The notes: generated by a model not told the origin, from the sequence alone. Counted from the first letter of the stretch, positions 19,147 to 62,665 are shown. The stretch is DNA of 64,000 nt from an uncultured Acidobacteriota bacterium (GCA_963827655.1 CAWHCF010000023.1:128001-192000), one strand, 5' to 3'. Made by a program: numbers and translations.

Positions 19147-19728
19147 TCAGTCCAGATTCAACGATTCGATGCGCTTTGCCGCCTCTTCGCGAATCCTGCG
19201 GTACAGGCTGTTCCCATGTGAATCGATGGCAACGATCAGGGGTCCGAAGTTCCTGACGCGGAACTTCCAGAGGCATTCAGGCATCAGGTCTTCCCACCAG
19301 ACATCCACGATTTCTTCGATCTGGTTGGTCTCGAGCGCAGCCGTTCCACCGACGATCGCAAGGTATACGGCCCCATAGTCCTTCATCGCATCGACGGATC
19401 CCTGCAGCAGTCCACCCTTTCCTACCAGTGCGCGGACGCCGTAGGTGTTCAGCAACCCGGGAACGAAGCGATCCATCCGCGTACTCGTGGTCGTGCCGAT
19501 CGAGAGTTTCTCAAACTTGCCGTCGGGTCTCTTCCTTACCCCGGGAGCGGTATGAAGACAGACCGAACCGGTCAGATCGACCGGGGGAGCGACTCCCTCG
19601 TCAAAAATTCGTATCTGTGTAGCATCCCGTATGCCGAAGATCGTCCCGTCAATTCGGACGGTATCCTCGAGCTGGAGCCTTCGAACATCGCTCTCCGACA
19701 GAGGCGTCGTCAGAACATGTTGGCCCAA
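19147..19728 (-). CDS. Class I fumarate hydratase / tartrate dehydratase beta-type subunit (divergent)
   Basis: GIRDAT, GTTTSTRM, VGKGG, FGPLIVAIDSHGNSLY; TTG start after GGAGG (the ORF extension is translated repeat DNA). Confidence 0.85.
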   Translation of the reverse strand: MGQHVLTTPLSESDVRRLQLEDTVRIDGTIFGIRDATQIRIFDEGVAPPVDLTGSVCLHTAPGVRKRPDGKFEKLSIGTTTSTRMDRFVPGLLNTYGVRALVGKGGLLQGSVDAMKDYGAVYLAIVGGTAALETNQIEEIVDVWWEDLMPECLWKFRVRNFGPLIVAIDSHGNSLYRRIREEAAKRIESLNLD

Positions 19729-19746
19729 GAAATCCTCCCACCTTCC

Positions 19747-19935
19747 AATTGACGATTTACGATTGACGATTGACGATTGACAATGCATTGGCAGATGGTA
19801 GGGCAGACGCTGGCACGCGACATGGCATTTGAGTTGCCTTCCATGGACAACTCAGATGCCGTGTCGCTGCCAGCGTCTACCCTACAATCTGCCAATGCAT
19901 TTCAATCGTCAATCGTCAATCGTCAATCGTCAATT
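19747..19935. repeat. About 190-bp near-perfect palindrome capped by inverted (ATTGACG)n arrays
   Basis: Left arm aatgcattggcagatggtagggcagacgctggcacgcgacatggcatttgagttg pairs with right arm caactcagatgccgtgtcgctgccagcgtctaccctacaatctgccaatgcatt. Confidence 0.9.
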
Positions 19936-19936
19936 C

Positions 19937-20827
19937 TCAACCGTAGGTTATTTTTCCGTCCGAACCGATAGTGGCCGCCGCTCGCTCGCCCCGCCAGCAC
20001 TGCATGTTTACCGCCACTGGATTCTGGCTGATATGAGTGTGGGCCCATTCGATGTTCACGGCCAGCGCCGTCGTGATTCCGCCCAGCCCTTGCGGACCCA
20101 GACCGGTTGAATTGATTTTTTCGAGAAGGTCCCGCTCCAGCTGGGCCACCTGCGGATCCTGGCTGAAAGAACCAATCTTGCGGAAGGTGCTCGCCTCCTT
20201 GGCCAGATTCATCGCGAGATCGGAAGTCCCGCCCAGGCCGACGCCGACTATCACGGGCGGGCAGGGGCAAGCGCCGGATTCAAGCACGCAATGAAGCACG
20301 AATCGTTTAATTCCCTTCACTCCCTCGCCGGGATTGAGCATCTTCAGGAAGCTCATGTTCTCCGAGCCCGAGCCCTTGGGAGCCATCTGAATCTCGATGC
20401 GGTCGGAATCGGGAACGAAATCGACCTTGATGATCGGTATGCCCTGTCCCGTATTGGTGCCGGTATTCTTGCGCGTCAACGGATGGACCGAGTTCGAGCG
20501 CAAGGGGTGTTCCAGGGTCAATCTTTCGCAGGCTATCCGGATCCGGGACTTGATTTCAGCGCCGTCCAGTTGCAACCTCCCCCCCAGTAGAACCTTATAG
20601 ATCGGGATGCCGGTGTCCTGGCACACGAGTGTGCGCTCGCTGTCAGCGACCTTGATGTTTTCAAGGATGGTGAACAGAACCTCGGCCGCGGTATTGTTGC
20701 CGGAGCTACGCTCGGCCTCGAGGCCTTCTCCGAGCGCGTCGCGCACATCGTGGGGGATATCGCTCAGCGCCCTGAGATACAGGTTTCGGGCCGCCTCTTC
20801 GACGGAGTCATATATTGATGGATTCAT
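19937..20827 (-). CDS. Class I fumarate hydratase / tartrate dehydratase alpha-type Fe-S subunit
   Basis: [33 protein letters not shown]. Confidence 0.9.
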
Positions 20828-20857
20828 CTCTACAATACCTCTAAGACACGAAGAAAA

Positions 20858-22582
20858 CTATGAACGGCTCGCCGGGAGTTCAGGCGGCTTGAGACGCATG
20901 AACTCAACCGGTCGAACCGAAAACCTCATCTGACCCTGATCCGGAGCGATAACGATGTTTCTCAGCCAGGCCGGGTCGGGCGCGGGATAGTCCGATCGAT
21001 AGTGCGCTCCCCGCGACTCCTCCCGCATCAGCGCGCTTCCAGCAATCATTTCGGCAACCAGAGTCATGTTGATCACGTTGATCGCCTCATTCCACTTCGA
21101 ATTATAGATCGTGTCGCCGGACGACTCCGTGTCTTCCGCGCACTTCCTCAGGCGCCCGATGGTCTCGATCGCGGCTTTGAGATCGTGCCCGTTTCGGACC
21201 AGCCCGACTTTTTCCCACATCAGGTCTTCCAGATTTCGCCGCAGCTCGAACGGATTCTCTCCCGAGCCCCGATCAAGCGGACCGGCCCAGTATCGGCATA
21301 GTTCGCGCGTCCGATCCGGGGAAATCCCGCCCAATCCGACGCTACCGGCGTACTCGGCCATAGCATCCCCCGCGCGAGCGCCAAAGACAATCGAGTCTGC
21401 GACGCCGTTGCCGCCCAGTCGATTCGCGCCGTGCACTCCGCCGGCATCCTCTCCCGCGACAAACAGTCCTTCGAGATTCGAGCGGCAGTCAAGATCGATC
21501 CCGACTCCACCCATATGGTAATGCGCGCTGGGCGAGACCTCGACCCGTGAATGAACCAGATCAAAACCATAGTCGCCGCATCGCTCCACCATGCCTGGAA
21601 AATTGCGCATCAGAAAGTCCTCGCCCAGATGCGTGGCGTCGAGCAACACACCTCCGTTCTGTGTTCCCCGGCCCGCCATGATTTCCAGATAGCTGTAGCG
21701 CGAAACCACGTCGCGAGTGGCGCGCTCGAGCTTCACCGGCTCCCATTTTTCCATGTAGCGCTCGCCCAGGCCGTTGAAGAGACGGGCGCCGGCGCCGCGC
21801 AGCCCTTCTTCCAGCAATCCCCCGGTCGCCATGGAGCCTCCCACCAGCAGGCCGGTCGGATGAAACTGCATCATCTCCATGTCGACGAATTCGGCGCCGG
21901 CGCGAAAGGCCATGGCCATTCCGTCGCCGGCCTTCTCGAGCGAGGGAGAAGAAATCCGATACATGGTGGCACCCGCGCCGGTGCAAAGCAGAATCGCCTT
22001 GGCCCGGGCGGCGATGAATTTGCCGCGCCGGTTATCAAGCAGCAGCGCCCCGCAAACCCTGGAACCCTCGGTCAAAAGGTCCAGGCCGCGGCACTCTTCC
22101 AGGACCAGGATCTCCTCTTCCAGGATGTAGTCCCTGAGGTTGGACATGATCTCAATGCCGGTCAAATCTCCCTTGTGGACGGTCCGATCAAAAGATTGCC
22201 CGGCGAACGGCTTCTGGTGGATGGTTCCGTCTTCGTTTCGGTCGAACAGGCAGCCCACTTTGTTTTCCAGTTCGATAACGCGTTTCGGCGCATCTTCGAC
22301 CAGAACCCACGCCAGCCGCTGGTTATTCAGAAACGCGCCTCCCTTGACCGTGTCCTCAAAATGCCGTTCCAAAGAATCGGCCGGATGAAGCACGGCGTTG
22401 TATCCGCCTTGAACCATGCGAGTGCAGCCGCTTTGCCCGAGCAACCCCTTGACCACGATGGCGATTTTCAGGCGCCGGTTCCTTTCGTGGGCATGCAAGG
22501 CTGCCAGGAGGCCCGCGCCGCCCGCTCCCAGAATAAGAATATCCGCCTCCAGCTCGTCGCAGCCAGTCAAGGAGCGCCTCAC
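20858..22582 (-). CDS. Succinate dehydrogenase/fumarate reductase-family flavoprotein, non-canonical
   Basis: GAGGAG, SGCTRMVQGG (no FAD-linking His), QFHPTG, LLEEGLRG, TRDVVSR, HYHMGG, HGANRLGGN, REESRGAHYR. Confidence 0.9.
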   Translation of the reverse strand: MRRSLTGCDELEADILILGAGGAGLLAALHAHERNRRLKIAIVVKGLLGQSGCTRMVQGGYNAVLHPADSLERHFEDTVKGGAFLNNQRLAWVLVEDAPKRVIELENKVGCLFDRNEDGTIHQKPFAGQSFDRTVHKGDLTGIEIMSNLRDYILEEEILVLEECRGLDLLTEGSRVCGALLLDNRRGKFIAARAKAILLCTGAGATMYRISSPSLEKAGDGMAMAFRAGAEFVDMEMMQFHPTGLLVGGSMATGGLLEEGLRGAGARLFNGLGERYMEKWEPVKLERATRDVVSRYSYLEIMAGRGTQNGGVLLDATHLGEDFLMRNFPGMVERCGDYGFDLVHSRVEVSPSAHYHMGGVGIDLDCRSNLEGLFVAGEDAGGVHGANRLGGNGVADSIVFGARAGDAMAEYAGSVGLGGISPDRTRELCRYWAGPLDRGSGENPFELRRNLEDLMWEKVGLVRNGHDLKAAIETIGRLRKCAEDTESSGDTIYNSKWNEAINVINMTLVAEMIAGSALMREESRGAHYRSDYPAPDPAWLRNIVIAPDQGQMRFSVRPVEFMRLKPPELPASRS

Positions 22583-22926
22583 AGGTTCTTGAAGGCCTGG
22601 ATCCCAAGATACGCCCAGTAAACCCCGGCCGCCATCAGGATCGCGGTGCAGACTCGAGCCGCCTTCTTTCCGATTCGGCTGTAGTCCAGGATGATATTTC
22701 GCAATCCGTTCAGTCCGTGGTACAGGGCGATAACCAGAAACGAAATGTCGATGGCCTGCCAGTAGGGGTTTGAGATTCGGTCAAGGATCGCAGCATAGGT
22801 GAGCTCCCCCCGCCTGAGCGGAGCCGTCATGAAATGCTCCACCCAGAAATGGGCAACCAGAAGGACAAGCAAAAGAGCTCCGGTGATTCTCTGCAGATAC
22901 CACTCGATAACGCTTCGATACATCAC
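22579..22926 (-). CDS. SdhD-like hydrophobic membrane anchor
   Basis: WYLQRITG, VAHFW, LYHGLNGLRNIILDY; three TM helices. Confidence 0.85.
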   Translation of the reverse strand: MMYRSVIEWYLQRITGALLLVLLVAHFWVEHFMTAPLRRGELTYAAILDRISNPYWQAIDISFLVIALYHGLNGLRNIILDYSRIGKKAARVCTAILMAAGVYWAYLGIQAFKNL

Positions 22927-22940: not shown

Positions 22941-23330
22941 TCAGATGCGCAGGATGGAAAAGAGAAATATCGGGATGGCTCCGGCCAGAAAAATCAGGCC
23001 GCCGATCCCGAGCGCGAGCAGCCAGAACAGCTGTCGCTGTTTTTCGTGCCCCATTCCAAGGTCGATCAGCGTGATACGAATGCCGTTCAGAGCGTGCAGG
23101 ACCACGGTTCCGAGCAGCGCAATTTCCAGAAGCTTGAAGGCCGGTCTTTGGAAGAAACTCATGGCCTGGTCGAAAGCAGCCGGCCCCTGGCTCAGCTTGT
23201 TGATCGTGAGCACGTGCAGAAAAAGATAGAACAACAAGAGCAGGCCGCTCACGCGCTGGATCACCCAGGCCAGCATGCCGCTGTACTGCCAGCTATACTT
23301 CCGGACCAGAAGTCTCGCTGAGTTTTTCAC
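22941..23330 (-). CDS. SdhC-like cytochrome b membrane subunit
   Basis: AWVIQRVSG, LFLHV, LHALNGIRITLIDLG; three TM helices. Confidence 0.85.
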   Translation of the reverse strand: MKNSARLLVRKYSWQYSGMLAWVIQRVSGLLLLFYLFLHVLTINKLSQGPAAFDQAMSFFQRPAFKLLEIALLGTVVLHALNGIRITLIDLGMGHEKQRQLFWLLALGIGGLIFLAGAIPIFLFSILRI

Positions 23331-24042
23331 GGAATCTCCCGGGTCTCAACATCGCTCTTTTCATCCTGGCGATAGAATCGGTGAGATCGATGCCTTTGGG
23401 ACAGGCGGCCACGCAGTTGAACTGGGTATGACAGCGCCAGATTCCTCCGAGTTCATCATTGACGACCCGGAGACGTTCTTCGACCGCCCCGTCGCGCGGG
23501 TCCATCAGTCGCAGGTATGCCTTGTTGATCGCCGCCGGCCCGAGGTATCGGCGATTTGTTCCCGTAACACCGCAAGCCGAAAAACAGGCGGCGCACGTGA
23601 TACAGTCGCGCTTTTCCCGGGCCTGCCGCCCGAACTCGGATGACGGAGGGATGCGCGCCAATTCCTGGGAGTTCCGGCCGGAGAAATGAAAAGCCGGCCA
23701 GACCCGCTTCCATTGCGCGAAAAAGGGCTCCAACGAGACGATCAAGTCCTTGAGTACCGGAAGGTGGGGGAGAGGTTCGACGGTGATGGTTTCCGACGCC
23801 AGATTCTCGATTCCGGTCTTGCAGGCCAGGCGCGGAATCCGATTAATGTACATGGCGCACGTCCCGCACATGGCAACCCGGCAGGAATAACGAAAGCAGA
23901 GGGACGGATCTTGCTCGCGCTGGATGGCAAACAGACCGTCCAGCACCGTCATCCTTTCCTGTATGGCAACCCGGAACGATTGAACTTGTTTCGACGCGCC
24001 ACCGGGAGCGGAACGGCTGACCTTGAAGAAAACCGAGTTCAT
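23293..24042 (-). CDS. SdhB/FrdB-like iron-sulfur subunit
   Basis: SCRVAMCGTC..LAC (2Fe-2S), CITCAACFSAC (4Fe-4S), CHTQFNCVAACP (3Fe-4S). Confidence 0.9.
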   Translation of the reverse strand: MNSVFFKVSRSAPGGASKQVQSFRVAIQERMTVLDGLFAIQREQDPSLCFRYSCRVAMCGTCAMYINRIPRLACKTGIENLASETITVEPLPHLPVLKDLIVSLEPFFAQWKRVWPAFHFSGRNSQELARIPPSSEFGRQAREKRDCITCAACFSACGVTGTNRRYLGPAAINKAYLRLMDPRDGAVEERLRVVNDELGGIWRCHTQFNCVAACPKGIDLTDSIARMKRAMLRPGRFREKLSETSGPEV

Positions 24043-24052
24043 TATATAGAAC
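24037..24052. promoter_or_regulatory. Putative IclR-type operator 1, overlapping the sdhB-like start codon
   Basis: GTTCATTATATAGAAC; same 16-bp pattern at 29396 and 36526. Confidence 0.65.
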
Positions 24053-24075
24053 ACCTTTTTTATTTACGAAACAAG

Positions 24076-24105: not shown

Positions 24106-24163
24106 GGCCGCCTCGACTCTTGATGTTTCTTCGTGTGTGGTTGTTTTGTTAAGATGTCGATCC

Positions 24164-24640
24164 GTGAAAACTACCCGCCGGTACATTCGCCTGACTTTCG
24201 TCACGGGGGGAGAGTCCGTCGTGGCGGAAATGCTCGATGACGAGGCCCCGGAAACCTGCCGCCTGGTCTGGCAGCTCCTGCCGCTGGAACACAAGGTAGT
24301 CCACGGACAGTACTCTGGCGCCGAAGTCTTCATCCTGCTCGATAATCCCCAGCCGTCTGCGCGTGAAAATCTGGCCCAGATTCCGCTTCCGGGAGAACTC
24401 CTTTACTTCCATGACCCGGGCGGGAACGTCATCACCGGTCCCCGGTCTATGTCCGAGATCTGCCTGGTATATGGCCGCGGCGTGGTGTTGCGCGCTCACG
24501 AAGGCGTCCCGACCTATGCCACATTGTTCGCGCGCATACCGGGTGACTGGAAGTATGACTGGACCGCTTTTGCCCAGGCCTGCCGCCGGGCACGATCCGA
24601 CATCCCCCAGCGCCTGCGCATCGAGCGAGTCGATTCTTAG
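24164..24640 (+). CDS. DUF3830 family (cyclophilin-like fold) protein
   Basis: APETC..LP....HGQYSGAE...EN....P.PGELLYF...EICLVYGRG; GTG start just after a TAAGAT box (possibly leaderless). Confidence 0.75.
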   Translation: MKTTRRYIRLTFVTGGESVVAEMLDDEAPETCRLVWQLLPLEHKVVHGQYSGAEVFILLDNPQPSARENLAQIPLPGELLYFHDPGGNVITGPRSMSEICLVYGRGVVLRAHEGVPTYATLFARIPGDWKYDWTAFAQACRRARSDIPQRLRIERVDS

Positions 24641-24804: not shown

Positions 24805-25920
24805 CTACCGGATTCGGAAGTGCTCGACTTTATCGTCGTCGAGCTCAACCCCGAGGCCAGGCCGTTCAATCGGCTGAGCCTTTCCGCCGGCGATCTGAAG
24901 AGGTTCGGTGAGCAGTTCCGCTTCATAGTAAAGCGGACCGAGGATGTCGCAGGGAAACTCCTCGGCTGCAATCCCGGGCGTCGAGATCGCCAGGTGAATC
25001 ATGGCGGCGCTGGCCACTCCGAGCTCGAGGTTACTGCCCACGGTAGCGCTCAAGCCGGCAGCCTCGGCCACGGCCGCGATCTTTCGAGCCGGGCCCAGGC
25101 CTCCCCCTTTTCCCACATACACCGAGAGAACATCCGCGGCGCCCGCCCGCGTGATGCGCATCGCATCCTGGAGAGTGTAGACGCTTTCGTCGGCGATCAC
25201 CGGCACGTCGACCTGGCTTCGAACTTCCGCCAGAGAATGCAGGTCATCCGGGGCGACCGGCTGCTCGGCAAAATAAATGTCGCACTCGGAAAGCCGACGA
25301 ATCGTCTTGATCGCCGTCCGGCAGGTCCAGCCGCCATTCGCGTCCACTCCCAGCCGTACCGCCGATCCAATGGCTTTCCGTACGGCCCGCACTCGCTCAA
25401 CGTCCTGGTCTGGGTCCATCCCGACCTTTACCTTCATGGTCTTGAACCCCTGGCTGGCCGCCCAGGCAGCAATCTCGGCGGCCTTGCCGGGTTCCAGGCC
25501 GGAAACCGACCACTTCGTCGGGACGAAGTCGCGCACCGCACCGCCCAGGAGGCGATACACAGGAAGTCCGGCGGTCTTACCCAGAATGTCCCAGAGCGCC
25601 ATCTCGACGGCCGATTTCGTGAAAGGATTCTGCGCTATCGCCAGGCTCAGCTTGCCGCCAAGCCTCTCGATGTCGGTAGGGTTTTCGCCTGCGAGAAGCG
25701 GGTCGAAAAACTTTTCGATGAAGTGAGCCGCGGTGAATTGATCCTCGCCACTCCATCGAGGGGTGCATGAAACCTCGCCCAGGCCGGTGATTCCCTCGTC
25801 GGTATGCACCTTGATCAGCAGGAATGGAGACGTGGTGTGATAGCCGCGCGCGCCCTTGATGGCAAGCTGGGGCTTGATCGGAACCTGAACCGGGATGCTT
25901 TCAATTCGGGTGATCTTCAT
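24805..25920 (-). CDS. Enolase-superfamily (muconate-lactonizing subgroup) enzyme
   Basis: GLGE, MALWDILGK, KVKVG, DAN/EQP/DES metal ligands, PGLGVELD. Confidence 0.88.
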   Translation of the reverse strand: MKITRIESIPVQVPIKPQLAIKGARGYHTTSPFLLIKVHTDEGITGLGEVSCTPRWSGEDQFTAAHFIEKFFDPLLAGENPTDIERLGGKLSLAIAQNPFTKSAVEMALWDILGKTAGLPVYRLLGGAVRDFVPTKWSVSGLEPGKAAEIAAWAASQGFKTMKVKVGMDPDQDVERVRAVRKAIGSAVRLGVDANGGWTCRTAIKTIRRLSECDIYFAEQPVAPDDLHSLAEVRSQVDVPVIADESVYTLQDAMRITRAGAADVLSVYVGKGGGLGPARKIAAVAEAAGLSATVGSNLELGVASAAMIHLAISTPGIAAEEFPCDILGPLYYEAELLTEPLQIAGGKAQPIERPGLGVELDDDKVEHFRIR

Positions 25921-26128: not shown

Positions 26129-29100
26129 CTAGAACACGATTTTCAGCGCAAACTGCATCTGCCTGGCTGGACCTGCGCCGGTGATCACCCCGGTCGTCAT
26201 CTGATTGATGGTGACGTTCGGATTCTCCAGATTTACGTGGTTGAGGGCGTTGAACAATTCCCAGCGAAATTGCACGTAGCGCTGCTCGCCGAAATAAAAG
26301 TTCTTCATCAACGAGGTATCGAGAATATGGGCGCCCGGGCCGTCAATAAGCCCGACTCCGGAATTCCCGAAGGTGAAGTCTGCCGGCCGTCCTAGAGCGG
26401 CCGGATTGAACCAGAGGTTCGCGCTGGGATCGTCAAGCTTCAGATTGCCCACCAGGTCGGGACGGGCATTCAAACCGTTTCCAAGAGTGGCTCCCGGCAC
26501 GACGAAGGTCAGAGGCGTCCCGGAAGCGAAATCATAGATCCCCGAGAACTGCCACCCTCCCAGAAACGCATTGGCTACCGGGTGCAAGTCGCTGGCGTAC
26601 GGCTTTCCCCGGCCGAAGGGAAGCTCCCAGATGGAGTTCAAGTTCAACACATGGCGGGTCTCGAGTTGAGAGCGGCCGCGATCGTACCCCTCGGGCGCAA
26701 ACGGAGTGGGCCGGTCGGTAAGCAGGGCTCCGAATTCATCGATATTCCGGGCAAATGCATAGGCCAGCGAATACGACAACCCGCGGGTAAACCGGCGCTC
26801 GAATTTCAGCTGCATCGAGTCGTACCAGGAAGAACCCAGGTTATCGTAAAGACGGACAGTCCCCAGTCGCGGGTAGGGCTTGGCCGCCTGAAGGTTGGTA
26901 TAGCGTCCCGGAGCGACCTCGTTGTGGTCCTGCTGAGTGACGAGATCCCGGCCGCGATTTCCGACATAGGCCAGGGTCAGCGCCGATTGCAGAAAGGGCA
27001 GCGATTTCTGCACCGAGAGGTTCCATTCATGGATCTTCATCGGCCTGGCGTCATGGACCACCGCGGCCACCGACGGCAGGGTGAACTGCTGCGGGTCAAG
27101 CGGGAAGGCCGTCTCCCACCTTTGCAAGGAGGCCCGGGCGAATGTCTGGCGCTCGATACTCCAGTAAGGCGGCCCGATGATCGCAGAACCGACGACATTC
27201 CCATTGAAGCTGGTGGGAAACAGTCCGTATCCGCCGCGGACCACCAGGTCCGTGTTTCCCATCGGACGCCATGCTATCCCGACCCGGGGTGAAAAATGCC
27301 CGTCGGCTTCGAACAGTCCCCGCGGCATTCCGGCTTCGTCAGCCGTGATCCAGAGTCCCTCCGTGGCTTTGGCAAGAAAGGGCGCGGTGGCCTGCGCGGT
27401 CAGGTCGACGTTGCCGGATCCATCCTGGGCCGCGACCGACTTGCCGCGCGTGAGATCAAACGTGGCGCCGTTGTTACGAACGAAGGCCTTTTCGTGCCAG
27501 TGATCGTAGCGCAGCCCAAGGCTCAACGTCAGGCTGGGATGGAGCCGCCAGAAGTCCTGCACGTAAAACGCCGAATAAGGAGAGTGGGCCATGCCGAAGG
27601 TCTTGAGCGGAAAATTGCGGGCGTCGGAGGCCAGCATCCCCAACAGATAATCGGCAAAGCCGTTTCCCGTGTACTGGCCGTTGAAGGTAAAGGTCCCGCG
27701 GCTCGACTCAGACGCATGACGGGCCAGGGTTCTCCGGTCGTTGTATTCATAGCCGAACCCCAGGGAATGCTGCGCGCGGATCAGGTTGATGCTTGCCTTC
27801 CCATTGATGTCCTCTCGACGAAAGACGCCGGGGAAGTTGTTGGGCAGGGAGAAACCGGAATATCCCGGTGATCGCGACATTGGGCAGGCCCACGGCCTCC
27901 GCTCTCCCCTCGGTGGAGAATCCCTGTATTCCCGCTTGCTGGGTCAAGTTCTCTTTCCCGATCGAGGGCGAGTTCTGGAACGTATCCGAATGCAGGTACC
28001 CCAGAGCCAGATCGAAAAGCGTTTTCGGAGTGATCGTCCAGTTGTAGTTCAGCCCGACGTTGTGCTGAAACAGATCCAGGTCCTGCACGATTTCGGGCCG
28101 GTATCCAAGCGCCGCCTGGTCCTGACCCACGCGAATCCATCGAACATAAAGCCGCTGCTTGCTGGTCAACTGCTGGTCGAACCGCAGGGAGAAGTTACTG
28201 AGGTCGTTCGAAGTCGGCGCTACCGCCTGAAAGCGGTTACCGGCCGCGTTGGGTAAAAGCAGATGGGGGAAAAAGAACTTCGACGCGCTCGAGAAACGAT
28301 TGGCCGGGATCTGGTTGCCCGGGAACGGAGCGTTGGTAACCGGATCGGTGATGGTTCCCGGCAGCCTGGAGAAGTCCCCTTCCAGCATCTCAGGGAAGAT
28401 TGTGACCGCGTTGTAAATCCTTTCCTCCCGATTCTTGGTTCCTTCAAAGCTGGTAAAGAAAAATGTCCTGTTCTTGACCACCGGGCCGCCGACGGTAAAC
28501 CCGTACTGGTTTCGAATCAACTTGGGTTTGGTTGCGGCAAAGGTATTACGAGCCGCCAGAGCGTCGTTGCGATGAAATTCCCACAGGGTGCCGTGAAACT
28601 CATTCGTTCCCCCTTTGGTCACCAGGACTACCTGAATGGGATTCTTGCCATTCTCGGCGGTGAAATTCGACGTCAATACGCTGAACTGCGCGACCGTGTC
28701 GAGGTTGGGAAACGCAATTCCCTTGTCGTTGCTCGGGTCGTTCGAGTCGATCCCATCCACCAGGAATCTGGTTTGATCGTCTCTCTGGCCGAGTCCTTGA
28801 ACCGTATGCTCACGCGCGAGGCCGGCCGACACCCAGAAAGCGCATCCCGGGAACTAGATTCACGAGGGCGATGGCATTCCTTCCATTCAGCGGGAGATCC
28901 CGTATCTGCTTCTCTTCGACCACGCCTTCCACGGAGGCCTTCTCGGTCTGCACCAGCTCCACTCCGCCCTCAACCGTCACTTCCTGGGTTACGTCGCCGA
29001 CCGCCAGAACCGGGGAGATCCGTTTCTGCTCGCCCACGGTCAGCTCGAGGCTCTGCAGGCGCCAGGTCTTGAATGAAGCAAGCGACACGGCGGCCGAGTA

Positions 29101-29331
29101 GATTCCGCGCGGCAGCGCCAGAATCTCGAAGTGCCCGTTAACATCCGAAACGGTCGTCTTGGTGAGACCGGTTTCGAGATTCCTGACCGTGATCTCGGCG
29201 CCGGGAACGACGGCGCCCGAACCGTCCCTTACCGTACCCAGAATGGAGCCATCCGTACCTACCTGGGCGAGCATGCTGGGCACCGCCAGCCAGACAAAGA
29301 ACCAGACCGACAAGAATGAGCTTCTCCTCAC
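26129..29331 (-). CDS. TonB-dependent receptor (Oar-like, CarboxypepD_reg N-domain), frameshifts near 28820 and 27865
   Basis: DLPLNGRN, TKGGTNEFHG, RNQYGFTVGGP, FYVQDFWR, LGLRYD, RQMQFALKIVF distributed over three consecutive ORFs. Confidence 0.88.
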
Positions 29332-29395
29332 AACACCCTCCGCGTCAATTCGCCGTCCCTTCCAACGGATGCCAGGAAACACCGACAGACTATGT

Positions 29396-29411
29396 GTTCA
29401 TCTTATTGAAC
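29396..29411. promoter_or_regulatory. Putative IclR-type operator 2, upstream of the TonB receptor
   Basis: GTTCATCTTATTGAAC, 65 bp upstream of the GTG start. Confidence 0.65.
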
Positions 29412-29590: not shown

Positions 29591-29746
29591 GCTTTCTCAT
29601 CTGGATGCGGCCGGTGGGCTCTTTACCCGGCCTTACGGCCCTGATGCGCTGCAGACACTTCGCGTCGGGTCTTCGTGGTTATACATGTTTTAGTTTTCGA
29701 CGGGAGCGCATGTCCGGCGCGATCATTTCCTGGAAAGCCATCACTT

Positions 29747-32251
29747 ATGAAAATCATTCTCTTCTGCGGCGCCTGTCTGAGCGGGCTGCTCCTCTCCTTC
29801 TCGGTCACGCCAGACAAATTCCCCATCCGGGATGAGAAAGCAGCGACCGCCATAAAGCAGCGTTTTGTCGCTCTCACCGATGGCTGGGCGAAAGAAGCAA
29901 TCTTAACCCAAACCGAAAAGGAGGCCATGCAACGAGGACGCCAGTGGGAGACTCTGATGACCACGGGCCTGGATGATCCACTGGCCCGGAGAATTCTGGA
30001 AGCCGGCGAGCCTTCGTACGACGCGCTCGCCGGTTCCTATCCCGGAAAAATCCTCGATCGAACCGTGCTCGGCTCGTACTCGGATCCCGGTCGCAGAACC
30101 AAGACCTCTGATAACGAGTTCGTCGTCTGGTGGAACGGAGCGATTTCAGCTCATCTCATCGAAGGACAGCAGAGCGAAAGAATGCGCATAATTGCCGCCA
30201 ATACGAATGTCGTATTTCGCGTCGGGCCCTCCGCCGAGATGTTCGGCAAGTACGGCGAAAGCTATTCGCGCATCGGGTACGAGGATGGTTATCTCCCGAT
30301 GGTGCGCGCGCGCTACGAACACGACGGAATCCGGTACGAAGAGACGGTGGTGGCGGCCAATCGGGAGGGAGAGACCACCGGGGAAGACACCTGTTACGTA
30401 AGGTTTCAGCTCACCAATGCATCCGCGTCGGCACGCCGCGCGGCGCTTCACGCAGAGATTGTCTTAGCCGACGGCAGCAAGCTGAAATCATCGGGACAGA
30501 GCCTCCTCAACGCTTCGGGGGCCTTGATTCTGGACCACAGTGACGCCGGAGCCGCCTTCGATCAGAACACGCAGCGAATCACCCATGGCCTCGAACTGAA
30601 GCCGGACGAGACGGCGGCTGTCTTTTTCAGGATCCCCTATCTGCCAGACCCGGTGAGAAACGCCGCGCCGCCAACTGCGGCCGAGTTTGATTCCGTCTTC
30701 CGCCGCACGCGCGAGTTCTGGACCGACCTTCTGTCGTCGAGCATCAAGATCAACGTTCCTGAAGAGCGGGTCAATAAGATCTGGCGCGCGCTGCTGCTTC
30801 AGAACTTCATCCTTGCAGACGGCCCGCGATTCACGTACGGCGCCGGGCTCTGGTACAACAGCTCCTACTTTCCGGTCGAGAATGGCATGGGGACCAACGA
30901 TTTCGCCTTTTATGGCTTCGGCGACTACTCCCATGCTCTTTTACCCTTCTGCATGCAGACCAGCATCCATCCGGATCAGGCGGGGCGAAAATATCAGAAT
31001 CGCCGCGGGGTCGCTCTCCATCATCTCTACGAGAATTACCGCCTGGCGCGAAAAATGGATGTCTTCAATCAATACCGAAAGGACCTGTTCCGGGTAGCGG
31101 ACGAAATCATCGCCGATCGTAAAAGCACGATGGTGGAGCAAAACGGCAAGCGACCTCTTCACTGGGGTTTGCTTCCGCCCGACCGTCCGGGAGCCGATGA
31201 CCTGGGCGGGAAATATACCATGTACGTTCTGGCTCACAACATCACGAGTTGCCAGGGTCTGCAGGATTTCGGAAATCTCCTGGTCAAGAGCGGCGCGGAC
31301 AGGACGCGCGGCGAGAAGTATCTTCGAGAAGCGGATGATTTTCGCAAGACGATCTTAGCCGCCCTCAAAGCCAGCGTGATTCGGTCTCAAGGGCGGCCCC
31401 CCTTCGTGCCCCTCGAAACCCTTTATTTCAAGGAGACGCCCGATTACGGACCCGAGCCCTATGACGACCTCGCCCGCGGCCGGGTCCAGGGAACTTACTA
31501 TCACTACTGGGCCGATATGGAGCTGGGCTACAACTTCTTTGATGCCGACGACCCATTAGCCCGCTGGATTACAGATTACCTCGAAATGATGGGAGGGTTT
31601 GTACTGGGCTGTACCCGGAGCCGACACCGGCCCGCGCAGGAATACGGCTGGATCAACAACGTGTATAACTCCGGATACTACAATTTCATTCTTCGACGAG
31701 GCGAGATAGACAAATTCCTGCTCGGTTTCTATTCACGGTTCGCTTTCGGCATGTCCCGTCATGCCTACGTCGCGTCCGAGGGTTCCCCTCTTATCGGTTA
31801 CAACACCAGGAACGGAGGATTTGTCGGCGCGGATTACTCGTTCCCGAATTCGGCGGCCAATTCTGAAACCTTGCGAATGCTGCGCGCGATGCTGATCCTC
31901 GAAGAGTTGAAGAATAATGAAGAGACCGGCGACATCTATCTGGCGCGCGGCGTTCCGCGCGCCTGGTTCGATCAGGGAAAGAGAATCGAGGTTGCTGACG
32001 CCCCGACCTATTTCGGCAATCTCTCGTTCACCATTGAATCCAGGATCTCCGAAGGACTGATTCGAGCCACAATCAGACCTCCGGCGCGCGACGCCTACAG
32101 GAACATCGTGATTTCTGTGCGTCACCCCGGGAAGATCGCCATGCGCGAAGTCAAGGTCAATGGCAAGCCACACCGCGATTTCGATTCACGGGAGGGGTGG
32201 GTGCGGCTCCCTTCCGGGTCCAAAGAATTCGCCGTCGAAGCTTTCTTTTAA
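29747..32251 (+). CDS. Secreted hypothetical protein, probable six-hairpin glycosidase-like fold
   Basis: Signal peptide MKIILFCGACLSGLLLSFSV; W....KINVPEERVN; C-terminal LARGVPRAWF...APTYFG.LSF beta-sandwich typical of (alpha/alpha)6 hydrolase-like proteins. Confidence 0.6.
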   Translation: MKIILFCGACLSGLLLSFSVTPDKFPIRDEKAATAIKQRFVALTDGWAKEAILTQTEKEAMQRGRQWETLMTTGLDDPLARRILEAGEPSYDALAGSYPGKILDRTVLGSYSDPGRRTKTSDNEFVVWWNGAISAHLIEGQQSERMRIIAANTNVVFRVGPSAEMFGKYGESYSRIGYEDGYLPMVRARYEHDGIRYEETVVAANREGETTGEDTCYVRFQLTNASASARRAALHAEIVLADGSKLKSSGQSLLNASGALILDHSDAGAAFDQNTQRITHGLELKPDETAAVFFRIPYLPDPVRNAAPPTAAEFDSVFRRTREFWTDLLSSSIKINVPEERVNKIWRALLLQNFILADGPRFTYGAGLWYNSSYFPVENGMGTNDFAFYGFGDYSHALLPFCMQTSIHPDQAGRKYQNRRGVALHHLYENYRLARKMDVFNQYRKDLFRVADEIIADRKSTMVEQNGKRPLHWGLLPPDRPGADDLGGKYTMYVLAHNITSCQGLQDFGNLLVKSGADRTRGEKYLREADDFRKTILAALKASVIRSQGRPPFVPLETLYFKETPDYGPEPYDDLARGRVQGTYYHYWADMELGYNFFDADDPLARWITDYLEMMGGFVLGCTRSRHRPAQEYGWINNVYNSGYYNFILRRGEIDKFLLGFYSRFAFGMSRHAYVASEGSPLIGYNTRNGGFVGADYSFPNSAANSETLRMLRAMLILEELKNNEETGDIYLARGVPRAWFDQGKRIEVADAPTYFGNLSFTIESRISEGLIRATIRPPARDAYRNIVISVRHPGKIAMREVKVNGKPHRDFDSREGWVRLPSGSKEFAVEAFF

Positions 32252-32649: not shown

Positions 32650-32730
32650 AGGGAGCCGGACCGGCTTGATAGCCCGTCCGCACATGAACCGGGCGAGTTT
32701 CTGCAACAGTCTCGAATGACCCGCGCCACA
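32650..32730 (+). repeat. Partial copy of the dispersed MITE-like family
   Basis: ggcttgatagcccgtccgcacatgaaccgggcgagtttctgcaacagtctcgaatgacccgcgccacaa matches about 55653-55722. Confidence 0.75.
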
Positions 32731-32779
32731 AGGAGCAAGCAAGCTTGCCGAGTGGGTTGATAGCCGTCCCTACTGTCCG

Positions 32780-33848: not shown

Positions 33849-34672
33849 TGATACCCCCGGCCATGTAGCGTCACGATTCGATACCGGATGCCCCAATCTT
33901 CGAGCGCCCTGATCACACGCTCGCGTTGCTGACACCATCGAAGCTCTACTGCGGTTAACGGGAAACCCTCCTGGCTCCTGTTGATGATGCGAGATTCCAA
34001 GGCTACTTCATCCGGAGATTGCCGTACCTCCTCGAGGAGCTTGGGCGTGATCGTGCCAGGACGATGGACTTCGACAAACTCCTGGTCGTGCAGCGTAAGC
34101 TCGGATACGGTTCCGGTGGTAATCAACCGGTTCGCGTAGCGCAATTCGGGCAGCAGCTTCAACACCAGCATGTCGATAACATCCTTGGCCCATGTCCCTC
34201 CAAGCTGGCTCACCAGCTTCTTCGAATCCAGGCCGGACAATGGAGCCATGAGGAGATCATAAGAATCGCGATCGAAGAGTCTCGTGTCTGGCGGGATCTG
34301 GTCGGGCGCGAGCACCATGCAGTACTCACCGTAAAAGCGGACGCCGGTTCCTCCGAGCGCCACCGCTCCAAAGTAAGTGTCTCGGGCCTGTGCGCCAAAA
34401 CCTAAAAGACTGTCGACCTTCACACGATCCGGCGAAGGCGTTCGGCGTTTGCCGCCAATCACAGGCTCTTCATAAAGATTTCTGTAACGACCATCGGCCA
34501 GGAAACTCAGGAGAGCATCTGAAGAAATGTTAATGACCACGCGCAGCCCGGTCTCGGGATGCTCCATGATCTGTCGGATGATCTGAACGTTCCCCTCGAG
34601 AAACGGATTGGCGTTGCCGTCCTCTTTCTCTCTTTGAAGCCATTGCTCAACGCGCTCTTTCCAGTCGGTCAT
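33839..34672 (-). CDS. Hypothetical protein resembling DUF3626 (possible ADP-ribosyltransferase-like fold)
   Basis: DGRYRNLYE, YFGAV....G..FYGEYCMVL, EFVEVH..G.I....LEEV recall the DUF3626 YGAL..G..YG and YIEAQVHG pattern (from memory). Confidence 0.55.
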   Translation of the reverse strand: MTDWKERVEQWLQREKEDGNANPFLEGNVQIIRQIMEHPETGLRVVINISSDALLSFLADGRYRNLYEEPVIGGKRRTPSPDRVKVDSLLGFGAQARDTYFGAVALGGTGVRFYGEYCMVLAPDQIPPDTRLFDRDSYDLLMAPLSGLDSKKLVSQLGGTWAKDVIDMLVLKLLPELRYANRLITTGTVSELTLHDQEFVEVHRPGTITPKLLEEVRQSPDEVALESRIINRSQEGFPLTAVELRWCQQRERVIRALEDWGIRYRIVTLHGRGYQWR

Positions 34673-34735
34673 GAGAAAAGTAGAGATCGTCCATAGGTTA
34701 CTTCGCGTCTTCGAGTCTTCGCGGTGAGTTTGATC

Positions 34736-36493
34736 CTATCCGACCCCTGCCGCGCCTGAATTCCCGCCCGACCGAACCTTCCGCTCGCGCTTGAGAAACT
34801 CGGCGCCGTGCGCCCCCATTACCAGCCCGGGAACCGGCTTCAATTCGTGCCCCATGGAAACCAATTCCTTGACGATGGAAGGTTCGAGAGAGTTGGCTAC
34901 TTCTCCAGGTTCTTTCGCCTGTATCACGAGTCGCGGCGCCGCTGTCGCCTCGGAGACCGTCGACTTGAAGTCGATGATCCGTTGAGCAAGCTGGGCGCTG
35001 ACGTTGACAATCCGGCGGCCGCCGCGCAAGCCCAGCGCGACATCCCGGTCTGGGAGGCGCACGATCGTGGGAGACACATTGTTGAGCGGCCGTTTGCGCG
35101 CTCCCACAGAATTGACCAGACCCGGATGAGGATCAAACCGGCACATTCCATGACCCAGCGTGATTCCGGTCCCTGGAACCGTAAGGCAGGAACCGAATAA
35201 GCCTCCGTGCGAAATTGTTATCGCAACCAGGTTCCCGGTCTTATCCGCCGCCGAGACATGCATGGTCCCGTGTGGAGAGGGCTCAGGGAGAGCCGGGACA
35301 AGCCGGTCCACATGATTCGGAAACTGCCGGATCGTCTCAGTGCGGCCGGCTGCGTACTCCTTGTTCAACAGCCGGGCAACCGGCACTGTCGCGAAATCGG
35401 GATCCCCGACGTATGAGAGGCGATCACGCCAGGCGAGTTTGAGAATCTCGGCGAGCCGGTGCCAGTACGCCGCGGTCCTGTCCGGGACCGGTTCGAAGCA
35501 TTCCAGCATGTTGAGGATCTGGAGGCTCGACAATCCACCGTTAGGAAGAATAGCCCCGAAGACCTTCGCATCCCGGTAAACGATCTGATAAGGCTCGCTC
35601 ACCCGTGGGTCGAAGCGGGACATATCCTTTCGGGTCAAGATGCCGCCCAGACCCGCAACGTAGTCGGCAATCTTCTGTCCGATCTCCCCCTCGTAGAAGT
35701 CACGCCATCCCGAGGCTGAAATTCGCTCCAGGGTCTTTTTCATATCCGGCCTGTGCCAGATCTGGTCCTTCCCCGGGACCTTCCCGTCGGGCAAGAGGTG
35801 GCGGACACTGGGTTCGTAGCGCCGGATCATGGGCTCCTTTTGCTTGATGGCCTCTGCCGTGGGGCCGAAGGCAAAGCCATTTTCCAGCAGCGTGAGCGAC
35901 GGGGCGACAATCTCAGACCACTTCAAGCTGCCCCATCGCTCCCAGAGTCGGCCAACTCCACCCAGGGTTCCGGGGACGCCCACTGCCAGCGGACCGTACA
36001 CATTGGCGTTGTTTTCGATCCGGCATCCATACTCGTTTTCATTGATGTCTCGAGGCCCTTCCGCCAGCGGGAGCACCTTGAACATGCGTTCGTGAGCGGC
36101 TTCCGGCGCCACGGAGTTCGAGTCCAGCGACCAGACTCGATCCGCCTTGGCCTCCAGCACAACTGCACAGCAGACATATCCTCCGAGGTCCGACAGGTGC
36201 GGCTGCATTATGCAGCCTGCCAGACAGGCCGCCGCCGCTGCATCCATGGCGTTTCCGCCGCGTTCCACGATGCCGGCGCCCACACGAGCGACTTCCTCGA
36301 GCTCGGTGGCGACAGCTCCGGCGCCCGAGATCACCTCCTGCGCCCAGACGACCGATGGCGACGCCAGGGCTCTCGCTCTGGGCAAGCTGGAGATAAGTGC
36401 CGCGCCCGCCACGGTGGCGCCGACGCGGGAAGAGCTCTGCACAAATTCACGACGCGTCAGGCCAGTTCTCTTCTCGCTCCTCTTTGATTTCAT
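34736..36493 (-). CDS. Tat-exported gamma-glutamyltransferase-family (Ntn) hydrolase
   Basis: TRREFV Tat signal, GGNAMDAA, VGVPG, HGTMHVSAAD nucleophile Thr, FGS..VPGTGI. Confidence 0.88.
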   Translation of the reverse strand: MKSKRSEKRTGLTRREFVQSSSRVGATVAGAALISSLPRARALASPSVVWAQEVISGAGAVATELEEVARVGAGIVERGGNAMDAAAAACLAGCIMQPHLSDLGGYVCCAVVLEAKADRVWSLDSNSVAPEAAHERMFKVLPLAEGPRDINENEYGCRIENNANVYGPLAVGVPGTLGGVGRLWERWGSLKWSEIVAPSLTLLENGFAFGPTAEAIKQKEPMIRRYEPSVRHLLPDGKVPGKDQIWHRPDMKKTLERISASGWRDFYEGEIGQKIADYVAGLGGILTRKDMSRFDPRVSEPYQIVYRDAKVFGAILPNGGLSSLQILNMLECFEPVPDRTAAYWHRLAEILKLAWRDRLSYVGDPDFATVPVARLLNKEYAAGRTETIRQFPNHVDRLVPALPEPSPHGTMHVSAADKTGNLVAITISHGGLFGSCLTVPGTGITLGHGMCRFDPHPGLVNSVGARKRPLNNVSPTIVRLPDRDVALGLRGGRRIVNVSAQLAQRIIDFKSTVSEATAAPRLVIQAKEPGEVANSLEPSIVKELVSMGHELKPVPGLVMGAHGAEFLKRERKVRSGGNSGAAGVG

Positions 36494-36525
36494 GCCATCT
36501 CCCCGATTTGACATAACGAAAACAC

Positions 36526-36541
36526 GTTCAGTAAAATGAAC
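36526..36541. promoter_or_regulatory. Putative IclR-type operator 3, between the divergent GGT-family and iclR genes
   Basis: GTTCAGTAAAATGAAC. Confidence 0.7.
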
Positions 36542-36612
36542 ACAGTGTTTGCGGGATGTCGTCGGTCAAGTTTACTTAATCTCCTGTCGCCGCGAGGCAT
36601 AAAAAAGCGGGC

Positions 36613-37404
36613 GTGCTCAAGACGCGAAAGCCCAAAACCTATTCGGTTCCGGCGCTCAACCGCAGTCTCGACATCATAGAACGACTGGTCACTGAGGAGC
36701 GAGGATTGAGTATCACCGAGGTGAGCCACCGGTTCAAAATCCCTAAAAGCTCTGCCTTCGGAATCCTGCAGACCCTGAAGGCGCGGGGCTATGTCGAAAA
36801 AGACAGCGATGATCGCTATTCCCTCACATTGAAGATCTTCGGCCTGGGGAGCGCGCTCATTGATGCGCTCGATTTGCGAAAACAGCTCTACCCTCTGCTC
36901 AAGGAACTGACCGATAAGAGCAGGATCACGGGACACATCGCCGTTCTCGACCAGGGTTACGCCGTGTACGTCGAGAAGGTCGAGGTATTAGGAGCCGTTC
37001 GACTGACCACTGGAATCGGAAAACGGATGCAGGTTCACTCGACGTCGATAGGCAAGGCGTTGATCGCCTACCAACCCGCCTCTGAAGTCGACCGCATTAT
37101 CGCGGAGCGCGGTCTTCCTCGCCAGACCGGCAGAACCGTTTCCAGTGTCCAGGAGTTGAAAAACGAACTGGTCCGGGTGAGGAACCTGGGATATGCGGTC
37201 AGCAACGAGGAAAATGAAGAAGGGGTGCGGGCCGTGGCGGCGCCGATCTTTAACCACTCGGGCAAAGTGGCTGCCGCGGTGAATCTCGGGGGGTCGACGC
37301 TCCAGATCAAGATGAAGGATGTTCCCTCCCTGGGTGAGCTGGTTCGTTCTTACGCTGGCCAGATGTCGCGCAAACTCGGCTACCGGCCGACGGTGGGCGC
37401 CTAG
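36613..37404 (+). CDS. IclR-family transcriptional regulator
   Basis: VPALNRSLDIIE HTH, HSTSIGKAL, GYAVSNEE..GVRAVAAPI. Confidence 0.93.
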   Translation: MLKTRKPKTYSVPALNRSLDIIERLVTEERGLSITEVSHRFKIPKSSAFGILQTLKARGYVEKDSDDRYSLTLKIFGLGSALIDALDLRKQLYPLLKELTDKSRITGHIAVLDQGYAVYVEKVEVLGAVRLTTGIGKRMQVHSTSIGKALIAYQPASEVDRIIAERGLPRQTGRTVSSVQELKNELVRVRNLGYAVSNEENEEGVRAVAAPIFNHSGKVAAAVNLGGSTLQIKMKDVPSLGELVRSYAGQMSRKLGYRPTVGA

Positions 37405-62660: not shown

Positions 62661-62665
62661 CTTGA

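Follow-up and report, generated by a model that had tools for sequence, protein, structure and literature searches.

A putative accessory island with a complex II paralogue and its own iron-sulfur hydratase in an uncultured Acidobacteriota bacterium

The window analysed here, a stretch of 64,000 nucleotides from the genome of an uncultured Acidobacteriota bacterium (G000:C23:128001-192000; coordinates without further label are positions in this window), contains between positions 19147 and 37404 a group of genes that may form an accessory island of composite make-up, controlled by a single IclR-type repressor. At its core, SdhB-, SdhC- and SdhD-like proteins and an altered SdhA-like flavoprotein, together with the hydratase subunits HydA and HydB, are predicted to constitute a paralogue of complex II that is bound to the membrane, linked to quinone and provided with an iron-sulfur (Fe-S) hydratase of its own. 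This core would desaturate and then hydrate a look-alike of succinate rather than succinate itself, and our tentative candidate for this compound is 3-sulfopropanoate. The other half of the island, i. e. a TonB receptor, a secreted six-hairpin enzyme, a GGT-like amidase exported by twin-arginine translocation (Tat), an enolase-family enzyme and a DUF3830 protein, might serve the uptake and processing of an amide-, peptide- or glycoside-type compound, and would be switched on together with the core through a GTTCA-N6-TGAAC operator. The original prediction for this DNA had described such a gene content for an 18-kb block downstream of miaA (17833-18819), and the presence of these genes was confirmed, with the corrections given below. 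We infer the substrate, the direction of the reaction and the flow of metabolites between the two halves from the observations presented below.

The window sdh set is a parallel paralogue and not the set of housekeeping genes, as had been anticipated. The genome (8.18 Mb in 53 contigs, 90% complete) encodes three SdhA-like proteins, two of them on contig C40, where a canonically ordered set of sdhC, sdhD, sdhA and sdhB is accompanied by another sdhA-sdhB pair that reads from the opposite strand. The sdh genes of the island are all located on the minus strand: sdhB for the Fe-S subunit (23293..24054; PF13085 and Fer4 families; NF004616 with 227.8 bits at a cut-off of 228), sdhC for a membrane anchor of the cytochrome b556 type (22941..23330; PF01127, E 1.8e-16; TIGR02970 with 69.6 bits, cut-off 52.3), sdhD for the second anchor (22579..22926; PF01127, E 1.2e-14) and the gene for the SdhA/FrdA-like flavoprotein (20858..22582; PF00890, E 1.4e-73; PF02910, E 7.6e-27). 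The translated SdhB, the true start of which is probably the second ATG, contains three cysteine clusters with 2Fe-2S, 4Fe-4S and 3Fe-4S motifs, and both Sdh_cyt anchors are present. The flavoprotein keeps the catalytic His/Arg/His/Arg columns (MQFHPTG, ATRDVVSR, SAHYHMGG and HGANRLGGN). Its Cys53 is aligned to the histidine that links the flavin adenine dinucleotide (FAD), as 8-alpha-N3-histidyl FAD, in E. coli FrdA (1KF6; His44/45) and in both mycobacterial SdhA proteins (6LUM, 7D6V), with one extra residue at this site (SGCT versus S-HT). Moreover, Glu258-Glu259 are aligned to the T-E pair in the hinge loop of the same three structures, and RGEGG is changed to RGAGA. This pair corresponds to Thr244-Glu245 of FrdA. 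For all 25 models shown among the 30 NCBIfam models that matched the flavoprotein (SdhA, FrdA, NadB, TfrA), the score was below the cut-off, and the best was obtained with TfrA (NF004900, 571.5 of 718 bits).

The exchange of the two sites defines a subfamily. Starting from 80 related flavoprotein loci on contigs of one genome per species, we aligned the window protein with 81 further sequences with a minimum of 400 amino acids, 79 from these loci and two from the canonical sets of the same genome; the protein of locus L051 did not reach this length and was not included. The combination of GCT and EE is present in 71 of 71 subfamily rows (70 loci and the window), and H-T together with TE is found in all 11 canonical rows, among them both C40 proteins with their SH-T and TEG; not a single row was mixed. 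In a quick maximum-likelihood tree of 79 rows, from which L013, L042 and L046 with fewer than 500 amino acids had been dropped, the subfamily forms one clade of 68 rows (support of 100 in the Shimodaira-Hasegawa-like approximate likelihood ratio test), and the window flavoprotein belongs to a clade of 16 rows, again with a support of 100, from Acidobacteriota, Gemmatimonadota and Planctomycetota. Members with 47-79% identity occur in Acidobacteriota, Planctomycetota, Gemmatimonadota, Verrucomicrobiota, Chloroflexota, Bacillota, Actinomycetota, Armatimonadota, Nitrospinota, Pseudomonadota and in two haloarchaea, and the only label that they carry at NCBI is "FAD-binding protein". The sdh-hydratase module is accessory and patchy: orthologs of the flavoprotein and of HydA are absent from all 50 other genomes of the same family that were searched (best identity 39% for each), and a flavoprotein with at least 67% identity was detected in three of 401 genomes sampled from the phylum, i. 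e. G000 itself, G413 and G296.

The hydratase is encoded next to the flavoprotein, also on the minus strand. HydA, the alpha subunit of a class I enzyme (19937..20827), matches PF05681 (E 2.5e-86), NF004885 (302 bits, cut-off 276) and chain A of the Methanocaldococcus jannaschii fumarase structure (7XKY_A, E 4e-70), from which it keeps CQDTG, CPP and QCW. HydB, the beta subunit of this Fe-S fumarase-like hydratase (19147..19788; PF05683, E 2.5e-31; 7XKY_B, E 2.8e-35), retains TTSxRM and GKGG. It scores below the equivalog cut-offs for fumarate hydratase (166 of 269 bits) and TtdB (159 of 264) and passes only the subfamily-domain model TIGR00723 (160 bits, cut-off 145). With its Fumerase and Fumerase_C domains and the three cluster cysteines, the hydratase also retains KGSGSEN. 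As none of the fumarate-binding motifs of 7XKY is missing from HydAB, a di-anion with the shape of fumarate is expected as its substrate, and sulfoacrylate has this shape. No other class I hydratase was found in the genome. The search for separate sdh and fumarase genes, which the original prediction had called for, thus revealed canonical sdh genes but on the fumarase side led to an ambiguous class II gene: the single class II fumarase/aspartase-like gene of the genome (C6, locus L004, 1402-2877), which carries GSSIMPGKVNPV, reaches 547 bits with the fumC model (cut-off 665) and 541 bits with the aspartase subfamily model (cut-off 510), and its sequence is compatible with either a fumarase or an aspartase. 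The hydA-hydB junction is flanked by arrays of 7-base units in inverted orientation, ATTGACG repeated 4.9 times (19748-19781) and TCAATCG repeated 4.7 times (19902-19934). The former array overlaps the annotated start of hydB over about the first 14 codons, and the position of this start is therefore uncertain.

The neighbourhoods of the subfamily genes in other phyla provide an idea of what the core may act on. Many of the 70 subfamily loci are short, so that the neighbour counts are floors, and the identity thresholds were chosen by us. With this in mind, SdhB is encoded in 61 loci, HydA in 29 at an identity of at least 45% and in 41 at 30% or more, and HydB in 28 (at least 45%). The pairing of sdh genes with a hydratase thus recurs in many genomes, whereas the 18-kb block as a whole is not a conserved unit. 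A split SuyAB-like lyase (SAF and GD_AH) is present in 11 of the 70 loci, from Bacillota, Actinomycetota, Chloroflexota and the clade relative L052; counted by protein, there are 11 loci with a SuyB-like protein (at least 50% identity), 12 with SuyA-like, 7 with TauE, 5 with a YeiH-type exporter and 6 with Ldh_2. The SuyB-like proteins of Bacillus, Nocardioidaceae and L052 share 55-65% identity between phyla, and those of two Nocardioidaceae loci 83%. In L019, which represents a pattern seen in Bacillaceae and Paenibacillus, the order on one strand is sdhB, anchor, altered sdhA, hydA, hydB, TauE, SuyA-like, SuyB-like, Ldh_2 and GntR, and in L018 an exporter gene even lies between hydA and hydB. 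The best NCBIfam match of the Ldh_2 protein is L-sulfolactate dehydrogenase (293 bits, cut-off 500), and that of the exporter is the putative sulfate exporter YeiH. Among the genomes of the 16-row clade, four (G447, G449, G296 and G458) contain a SuyB ortholog, as compared to four of 398 genomes without the flavoprotein in the phylum sample, where a stricter filter was used, so that these counts are floors. Clusters of SuyA-like, SuyB-like, Ldh_2 and 2-hydroxyacid dehydrogenase genes are found in L093 (G447:C16, 8835-12338), beside an SSF transporter, and in L095 (G449:C133, 1910-5611), beside a GntR regulator; the two genomes belong to one Acidobacteriaceae and one Phycisphaerae bacterium. 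Not all loci share this context: those from Betaproteobacteria have CoA ligase, enoyl-CoA hydratase and PrpD-like genes as neighbours and no hydratase, and in Nocardioidaceae and haloarchaea an argininosuccinate-lyase-like gene, also XcbC-like, is located beside the flavoprotein gene (L023, L026, L039).

Because some of these loci encode a complex II for desaturation and a class I enzyme for hydration inside operons for the cleavage of sulfolactate and the export of sulfite, we suggest that 3-sulfopropanoate might be oxidized to 3-sulfoacrylate, with transfer of the electrons to quinone, and 3-sulfoacrylate then hydrated to 3-sulfolactate. We put this substrate forward tentatively, as an assignment that has a real chance of being correct but still falls short of being probable. 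According to a 2024 paper, there had been no report of 3-sulfopropionate degradation by bacteria, and a thesis cited there proposes sulfoacrylate and sulfolactate as intermediates of such a route (PMC11489063). Sulfoacrylate is a proven substrate of aspartase/fumarase superfamily enzymes that take part in the bacterial synthesis of coenzyme M (PMC9457059). A full-text literature search found no paper describing genes for a sulfopropionate or sulfopropanoate dehydrogenase, and in combination with succinate dehydrogenase or suyAB these terms led only to PMC11489063.

Several observations weigh against 3-sulfopropanoate. In the genome under study (90% complete), no ortholog of SuyB was detected, the best match being a fused UxaA-like gene on contig C13 with 31-35% identity, there is no Xsc (best match 247 of 676 bits), and no sulfonate gene is located beside the island in the window; sulfolactate would therefore be left without a visible fate. 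A SuyB ortholog was likewise not found in 12 of the 16 clade genomes. The SuyAB-like proteins are putative lyases named by likeness in sequence, and TauE is uninformative alone since this family was matched in 13 of 14 control genomes. A glutamate next to a sulfonate has no obvious fit, and an amino or amide group would suit it better. In addition, without the FAD-linking histidine the flavin may be bound non-covalently, which favours reduction over oxidation, and the best-scoring model, TfrA, describes an archaeal true fumarate reductase that may carry the same two changes. Finally, the enolase-family enzyme of the island is a stronger genomic partner of the flavoprotein than SuyB (9 of 16 clade genomes), and its usual neighbours are creatininase-family, DMFA2_C-like, peptidase and TonB receptor genes, not sulfonate genes. 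It is tempting to speculate that the missing lyase has been replaced: the Cys/Glu complex II would then be a new respiratory dehydrogenase, possibly with 8-alpha-S-cysteinyl FAD, that together with the Fe-S hydratase supplies the missing genes for aerobic 3-sulfopropanoate use, and in this Acidobacterium and its closest kin, in which SuyAB was not found, a non-homologous substitute for the sulfo-lyase would be the co-inherited enzyme of the enolase superfamily, which together with DUF3830 would abstract the alpha-proton from sulfolactate and release sulfite. We regard this extended scenario as improbable. The idea that the enolase replaces SuyAB gains no support from the 16 clade genomes, because their split into seven with the enolase only, two with SuyB only, two with both and five with neither is as expected under independence.

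The second half of the island begins with the gene for the cyclophilin-like DUF3830 protein (24137..24640; PF12903, E 2e-21; PDB 3KOP, E 1.2e-11). In contrast to the original prediction, it is not co-oriented with the sdh genes but is located on the plus strand, divergent from sdhB. A minus-strand open reading frame (ORF) of 183 amino acids at 24149-24700 was rejected as a shadow frame of this gene: it had no Pfam match even at E 10 and no relative among 5.8 billion proteins, and its tblastn matches contain stop codons. No mention of DUF3830 was found in the full-text literature search. The enolase-superfamily enzyme (24805..25920, minus strand; PF13378 and PF02746) belongs to the muconate-lactonizing/racemase subgroup and has 2P88 (E 1.3e-60) as its closest solved relative, which we take to be an N-succinyl-Arg/Lys racemase. 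The motifs MKVKVG, DANGGW, FAEQP, IADES and GKGGG can be read directly, and presumably provide the KxK motif, the D/E/D metal ligands and the second lysine. The protein stays below every NCBIfam equivalog cut-off (TIGR02534 with 253 bits, cut-off 335).

The enolase gene had been described as standing behind that for the TonB-dependent receptor (26129..29382, minus strand; CarboxypepD_reg/OMP_b-brl_4). Both are indeed present on this strand, but the receptor gene runs through three frames, with shifts near 27867 and 28828, although the product is homologous from end to end to an intact protein of 1074 amino acids in L009. Independent contigs from soil and rhizosphere, with a similarity of about 94-99%, are one base shorter in these places: those of runs X1 and X2 at 27867, and those of run X2 at 28828. 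Moreover, other genes in the window are split, i. e. a MacB/FtsX-type permease gene (2200-3455) and the gene for a second TonB receptor (48841-51521, at least three pieces). Since the contigs of the relatives lack a base in both shift zones and other genes are split as well, the frameshifts are probably assembly errors rather than decay, even though contigs of relatives do not prove this, and the assembly seems prone to frame errors. Arrays of 6-base units (ACGTGG / GCACGT, partly self-complementary) are present downstream of the receptor gene (26015-26071) and upstream of the gene for the secreted protein discussed below (29526-29586), with 12 matches to the pattern against 0.04 expected. In soil metagenomes, the summed contig depth over 26000-26116 is 40-342 as compared to 0-40, mostly below 20, in the other bins of the same stretch; this raised depth suggests that the element at 26015-26071 is present there in multiple copies.

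The secreted protein of 858 amino acids (29675..32251, plus strand, with a likely start methionine at 29747) has a signal-like N-terminus and no match to a Pfam model or to a PDB sequence; 164 relatives at E <= 1e-5, mostly from Acidobacteriota, were found among 8000 scored candidates, and a partial match is encoded in the unpublished genome G099. The AlphaFold model from 37 sequences (predicted local distance difference test 84.4, predicted template modelling score 0.87) combines a beta-sandwich with an (alpha/alpha)6 barrel and, at the C-terminus, a beta-domain. Its nearest neighbours by Foldseek are GH94 phosphorylases, GH15, GH65, GH95 and GH116, with 8HOB as the best hit (E 6.8e-15, template modelling score 0.48-0.51). 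The signal-like N-terminus and the barrel lend support to the proposal of a secreted six-hairpin-like protein, and the predicted fold supports a likeness to glycoside hydrolases or phosphorylases. Its relatives constitute a family of secreted proteins of about 810-860 amino acids with this predicted glycoside-hydrolase-like fold, which are frequent on metagenome contigs of Acidobacteriota. Matching sizes of the longest contigs (25611, 38701, 14361, 14961, 39737, 53141 and 8941) suggest that several of them may be located on the same contigs as relatives of the flavoprotein.

The last enzyme of the island is the GGT-family Ntn hydrolase (34736..36514, minus strand; PF01019, E 1.4e-103), and the TRREFV twin-arginine motif agrees with the expected Tat export. 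It scores below both GGT equivalog cut-offs (TIGR00066 with 288 bits, cut-off 358). In the alignment to 4Y23, a threonine is present at the expected cleavage site, and the NN...DDF stretch is replaced by GH...CRF; these would correspond to the Ntn threonine and to the residues that bind the gamma-glutamyl group. The substrate pocket therefore probably departs from the family motif. The original prediction that four catalytic enzymes deviate from their textbook motifs is thus valid for the flavoprotein and probably for the GGT-like pocket, but not for the hydratase with its conserved 7XKY motifs or for the enolase-family enzyme, the motifs of which are canonical.

The two halves may be subject to common regulation. 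The palindrome GTTCA-N6-TGAAC occurs perfectly at 29396..29411 (GTTCATCTTATTGAAC), between the receptor gene and the gene for the 858-amino-acid protein and 14 bases from the receptor start, and at 36526..36541 (GTTCAGTAAAATGAAC), between the GGT-like and the IclR genes, and with one mismatch at 24037..24052 (GTTCATTATATAGAAC), where it overlaps the start of sdhB over the first codons. All three sites are located at gene starts or between divergent genes, which bears out the claim of one palindrome common to three transcription units. With up to one mismatch, there are 9 copies in the window as compared to 1.8 expected, and none of 100 shuffles reached 9. Similar palindromes are found in four other loci, in L051, L052 and L055 where sdhB begins and in L009 upstream of the receptor gene. 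The IclR-family regulator (36613..37404, plus strand; PF09339 and PF01614) has orthologs with 57-69% identity beside the module in L009, L052, L055 (60-69% in these three) and G296; no IclR ortholog was seen in the 5.3-kb locus L051. From this arrangement, we infer that the regulator binds GTTCA-N6-TGAAC as its operator. Its best NCBIfam match is BhcR (184 bits, cut-off 350).

The distribution of the second half differs from that of the core. The 70 subfamily loci contain an ortholog of the enolase in three cases, DUF3830 in three, a GGT-like gene in five, the receptor in one and the 858-amino-acid protein in none; IclR is found in three (at least 45% identity) or 18 (at least 28%). At the level of genomes, the enolase ortholog is present in 9 of the 16 clade genomes and in none of 398 without the flavoprotein, and the two of the 401 sampled genomes that have it both hold the flavoprotein. 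The co-occurrence ratios for the enolase and for SuyB are, however, overstated because related genomes are not independent. The enolase gene adjoins the module in four genomes (those of the window, L009, L058 and L012). In G413, a single contig of 25.6 kb carries IclR, hydBA, sdhADCB, receptor, enolase, DUF3830, the 858-amino-acid protein gene and an SSF transporter, and in G447 an operon with DUF3830, an SSF transporter, a GGT-like gene (48% identical to that of the window) and the enolase shares a contig with the module, at a distance of 30 kb. Conversely, none of 33 enolase-centred metagenome loci of at least 8 kb (from 80 fetched) has sdh or hydratase genes; 12 of them have the receptor gene just upstream, seven DUF3830 and five a creatininase-family gene. 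Among 41 such loci of at least 6 kb, the commonest partners are creatininase-family genes (20), the receptor, a TPR protein and a DMFA2_C-like amidase (13 each), and peptidases, Opp transporters and amidohydrolases occur as well. TonB receptor, enolase-family gene, TPR protein, DMFA2_C-like amidase and creatininase-family gene together make up a recurrent metagenome cluster (L098-L177) with no described function. The remainder of this enolase module (creatininase, SSF transporter, SDR, SMP-30 and ceramidase-like proteins) had no match above 41% identity in the genome under study. Since the enolase co-occurs with the core by genome yet rarely adjoins the sdh and hyd genes, the island seems to consist of two separable modules that tend to share genomes.

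The same partners could point to another substrate for an otherwise identical architecture: a nitrogen-bearing C4 acid delivered by the uptake and hydrolysis half, such as an aspartate- or 3-hydroxyaspartate-like compound or an amide of the N-succinyl or succinamate type, with the glutamate of the flavoprotein binding its amino or amide group. The co-occurrence and adjacency of the enolase speak for this idea, as do the presumed activity of 2P88 and the amidases and peptidases that are its usual neighbours. Moreover, GGT-like genes accompany the flavoprotein in five loci and argininosuccinate-lyase-like genes in three, BhcR is the best match of the regulator, and a homologue of the 3-hydroxyaspartate aldolase BhcC is encoded next to sdhB in L052. 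However, a nitrogen-bearing acid leaves the SuyAB/ComC/TauE operons of Bacillota and Actinomycetota unexplained, despite the same active-site motifs there, and is at odds with the lack of sdh and hyd genes in the enolase-centred loci. In addition, the hydratase pocket seems to be built for a plain fumarate-like di-anion, and L-aspartate oxidase, which binds an amino acid, keeps the threonine. We consider a substrate of this kind possible, but on the doubtful side.

Alternatively, the two halves may be unrelated neighbours that belong to different pathways, with the palindrome as a coincidence or a general site; this is a question separate from that of the substrate. The enolase-centred loci without any sdh or hyd gene, the mere three flavoprotein loci with an enolase, the receptor-enolase pair that recurs alone in 12 of the 33 loci and the distance of 30 kb in G447 would all be in agreement with such a view. 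It is difficult to reconcile with the co-occurrence at the genome level, even if the genomes are not independent, with operator-like sites at exactly these three promoters and at the receptor promoter of L009, and with the conservation of the whole set on one contig of G413, and we judge it unlikely. The idea of one regulon joining the halves has thus gained from the palindrome shared here and in one relative, from the adjacency in four genomes and from the co-occurrence, but not from the enolase-centred loci. Similarly, of the original proposal that an imported compound is hydrolysed in the periplasm and a succinate analogue oxidized, the parallel complex II with its hydratase is well supported and the sulfonate given as an example fits the neighbours in other phyla, whereas a single 18-kb pathway is supported in part; periplasmic hydrolysis may still feed the oxidase. 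It is very unlikely that the core merely adds another ordinary succinate:quinone or quinol:fumarate oxidoreductase and a fumarase to the genome, for the conversion of malate, fumarate and succinate under particular redox conditions: the complete Fe-S and anchor features and the four conserved catalytic columns, the HydA score above the fumarate hydratase equivalog cut-off, the lack of another class I hydratase beside the ambiguous class II gene and the loss of the FAD-linking histidine in enzymes that only reduce fumarate are outweighed by a threonine that is present in every canonical row and in no subfamily row, two canonical sets in the same genome, the absence of the module from each of the 50 genomes searched in the family and from 398 of the 401 sampled in the phylum, its own IclR with a putative operator, and its interleaving with sulfolactate genes in other phyla.

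Outside of these genes, the window is rather conventional on its left side, where housekeeping genes (nusB, a class II tRNA synthetase gene, a clpB-like gene, bamA, lpxA/lpxI, tonB, a spoIID-like gene and miaA) occupy the region up to 18.8 kb. Within the island, 32252-34735 contains only ORFs, none of them with a Pfam match (including those at 32770-34672); on the minus strand, these comprise 277, 112 and 277 amino acids in three different frames, and the guanine-cytosine content by codon position is weakly gene-like. The ORF at 33839-34672, the one in this region that was compared with other genomes, had no relatives when 50 genomes of the family were searched. At 61382-62665, a truncated SDR gene adjoins an FAD_binding_2 fragment.

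The Cys/Glu complex II subfamily with its dedicated hydratase would be a widespread uncharacterized sister line of well-known enzymes, with at least 70 loci in about a dozen phyla including haloarchaea. If 3-sulfopropanoate were the substrate, the module would provide the missing genes for a product of the breakdown of sulfoquinovose, 2,3-dihydroxypropane-1-sulfonate (DHPS) and homotaurine, and an abundant pool of organosulfur would be directly linked to the quinone pool. The strictly conserved cysteine at the flavin-linking site raises the question of a complex II with cysteinyl or free flavin, and of the effect on its redox bias. Finally, the island may be an example of how a core module of this kind is joined, under a common putative IclR operator, to genes for uptake and hydrolysis.

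With complex II as known from E. coli SdhCDAB (1NEK) and FrdABCD (1KF6) and from Mycobacterium smegmatis Sdh1 (7D6V, the best solved match), the window module shares the four subunits, FAD_binding_2 and Succ_DH_flav_C domains, a three-cluster Fe-S subunit and two Sdh_cyt anchors. It differs by the cysteine in place of the FAD-linking histidine, the glutamate in place of threonine and the gene order B-C-D-A, and it is accessory, linked to IclR and paired with a hydratase. TfrA (NF004900) is the top-scoring named family for the flavoprotein, below its cut-off, but the partner here is the membrane-anchored SdhBCD rather than TfrB. HydAB has the two-gene layout and the Fe-S and substrate motifs in common with the two-subunit fumarate hydratase of M. 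jannaschii (7XKY) and the L(+)-tartrate dehydratase TtdAB, whereas it is encoded together with an altered complex II and, in other phyla, inside sulfolactate operons. The sulfolactate set SuyAB, ComC/SlcC and TauE/SuyZ is known from Paracoccus, Chromohalobacter and Cupriavidus; homologues are neighbours of the same flavoprotein and hydratase genes in 11 of the 70 loci and occur in 4 of the 16 clade genomes, and none was found in the window or, with the queries used, in the genome under study. A precedent is the tricarballylate dehydrogenase TcuA/TcuB, the SdhA-like flavoprotein of which desaturates an analogue of succinate and donates the electrons to the membrane; its subunit make-up is another one, and it has no dedicated hydratase. 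The coenzyme M enzymes XcbC and XcbD belong to a different superfamily than the class I hydratase and to a biosynthetic rather than a catabolic pathway, but they show that sulfoacrylate is handled as a fumarate mimic by enzymes of the fumarase superfamily (PMC9457059), and it is XcbC-like genes that are found beside the flavoprotein gene in L023, L026 and L039.

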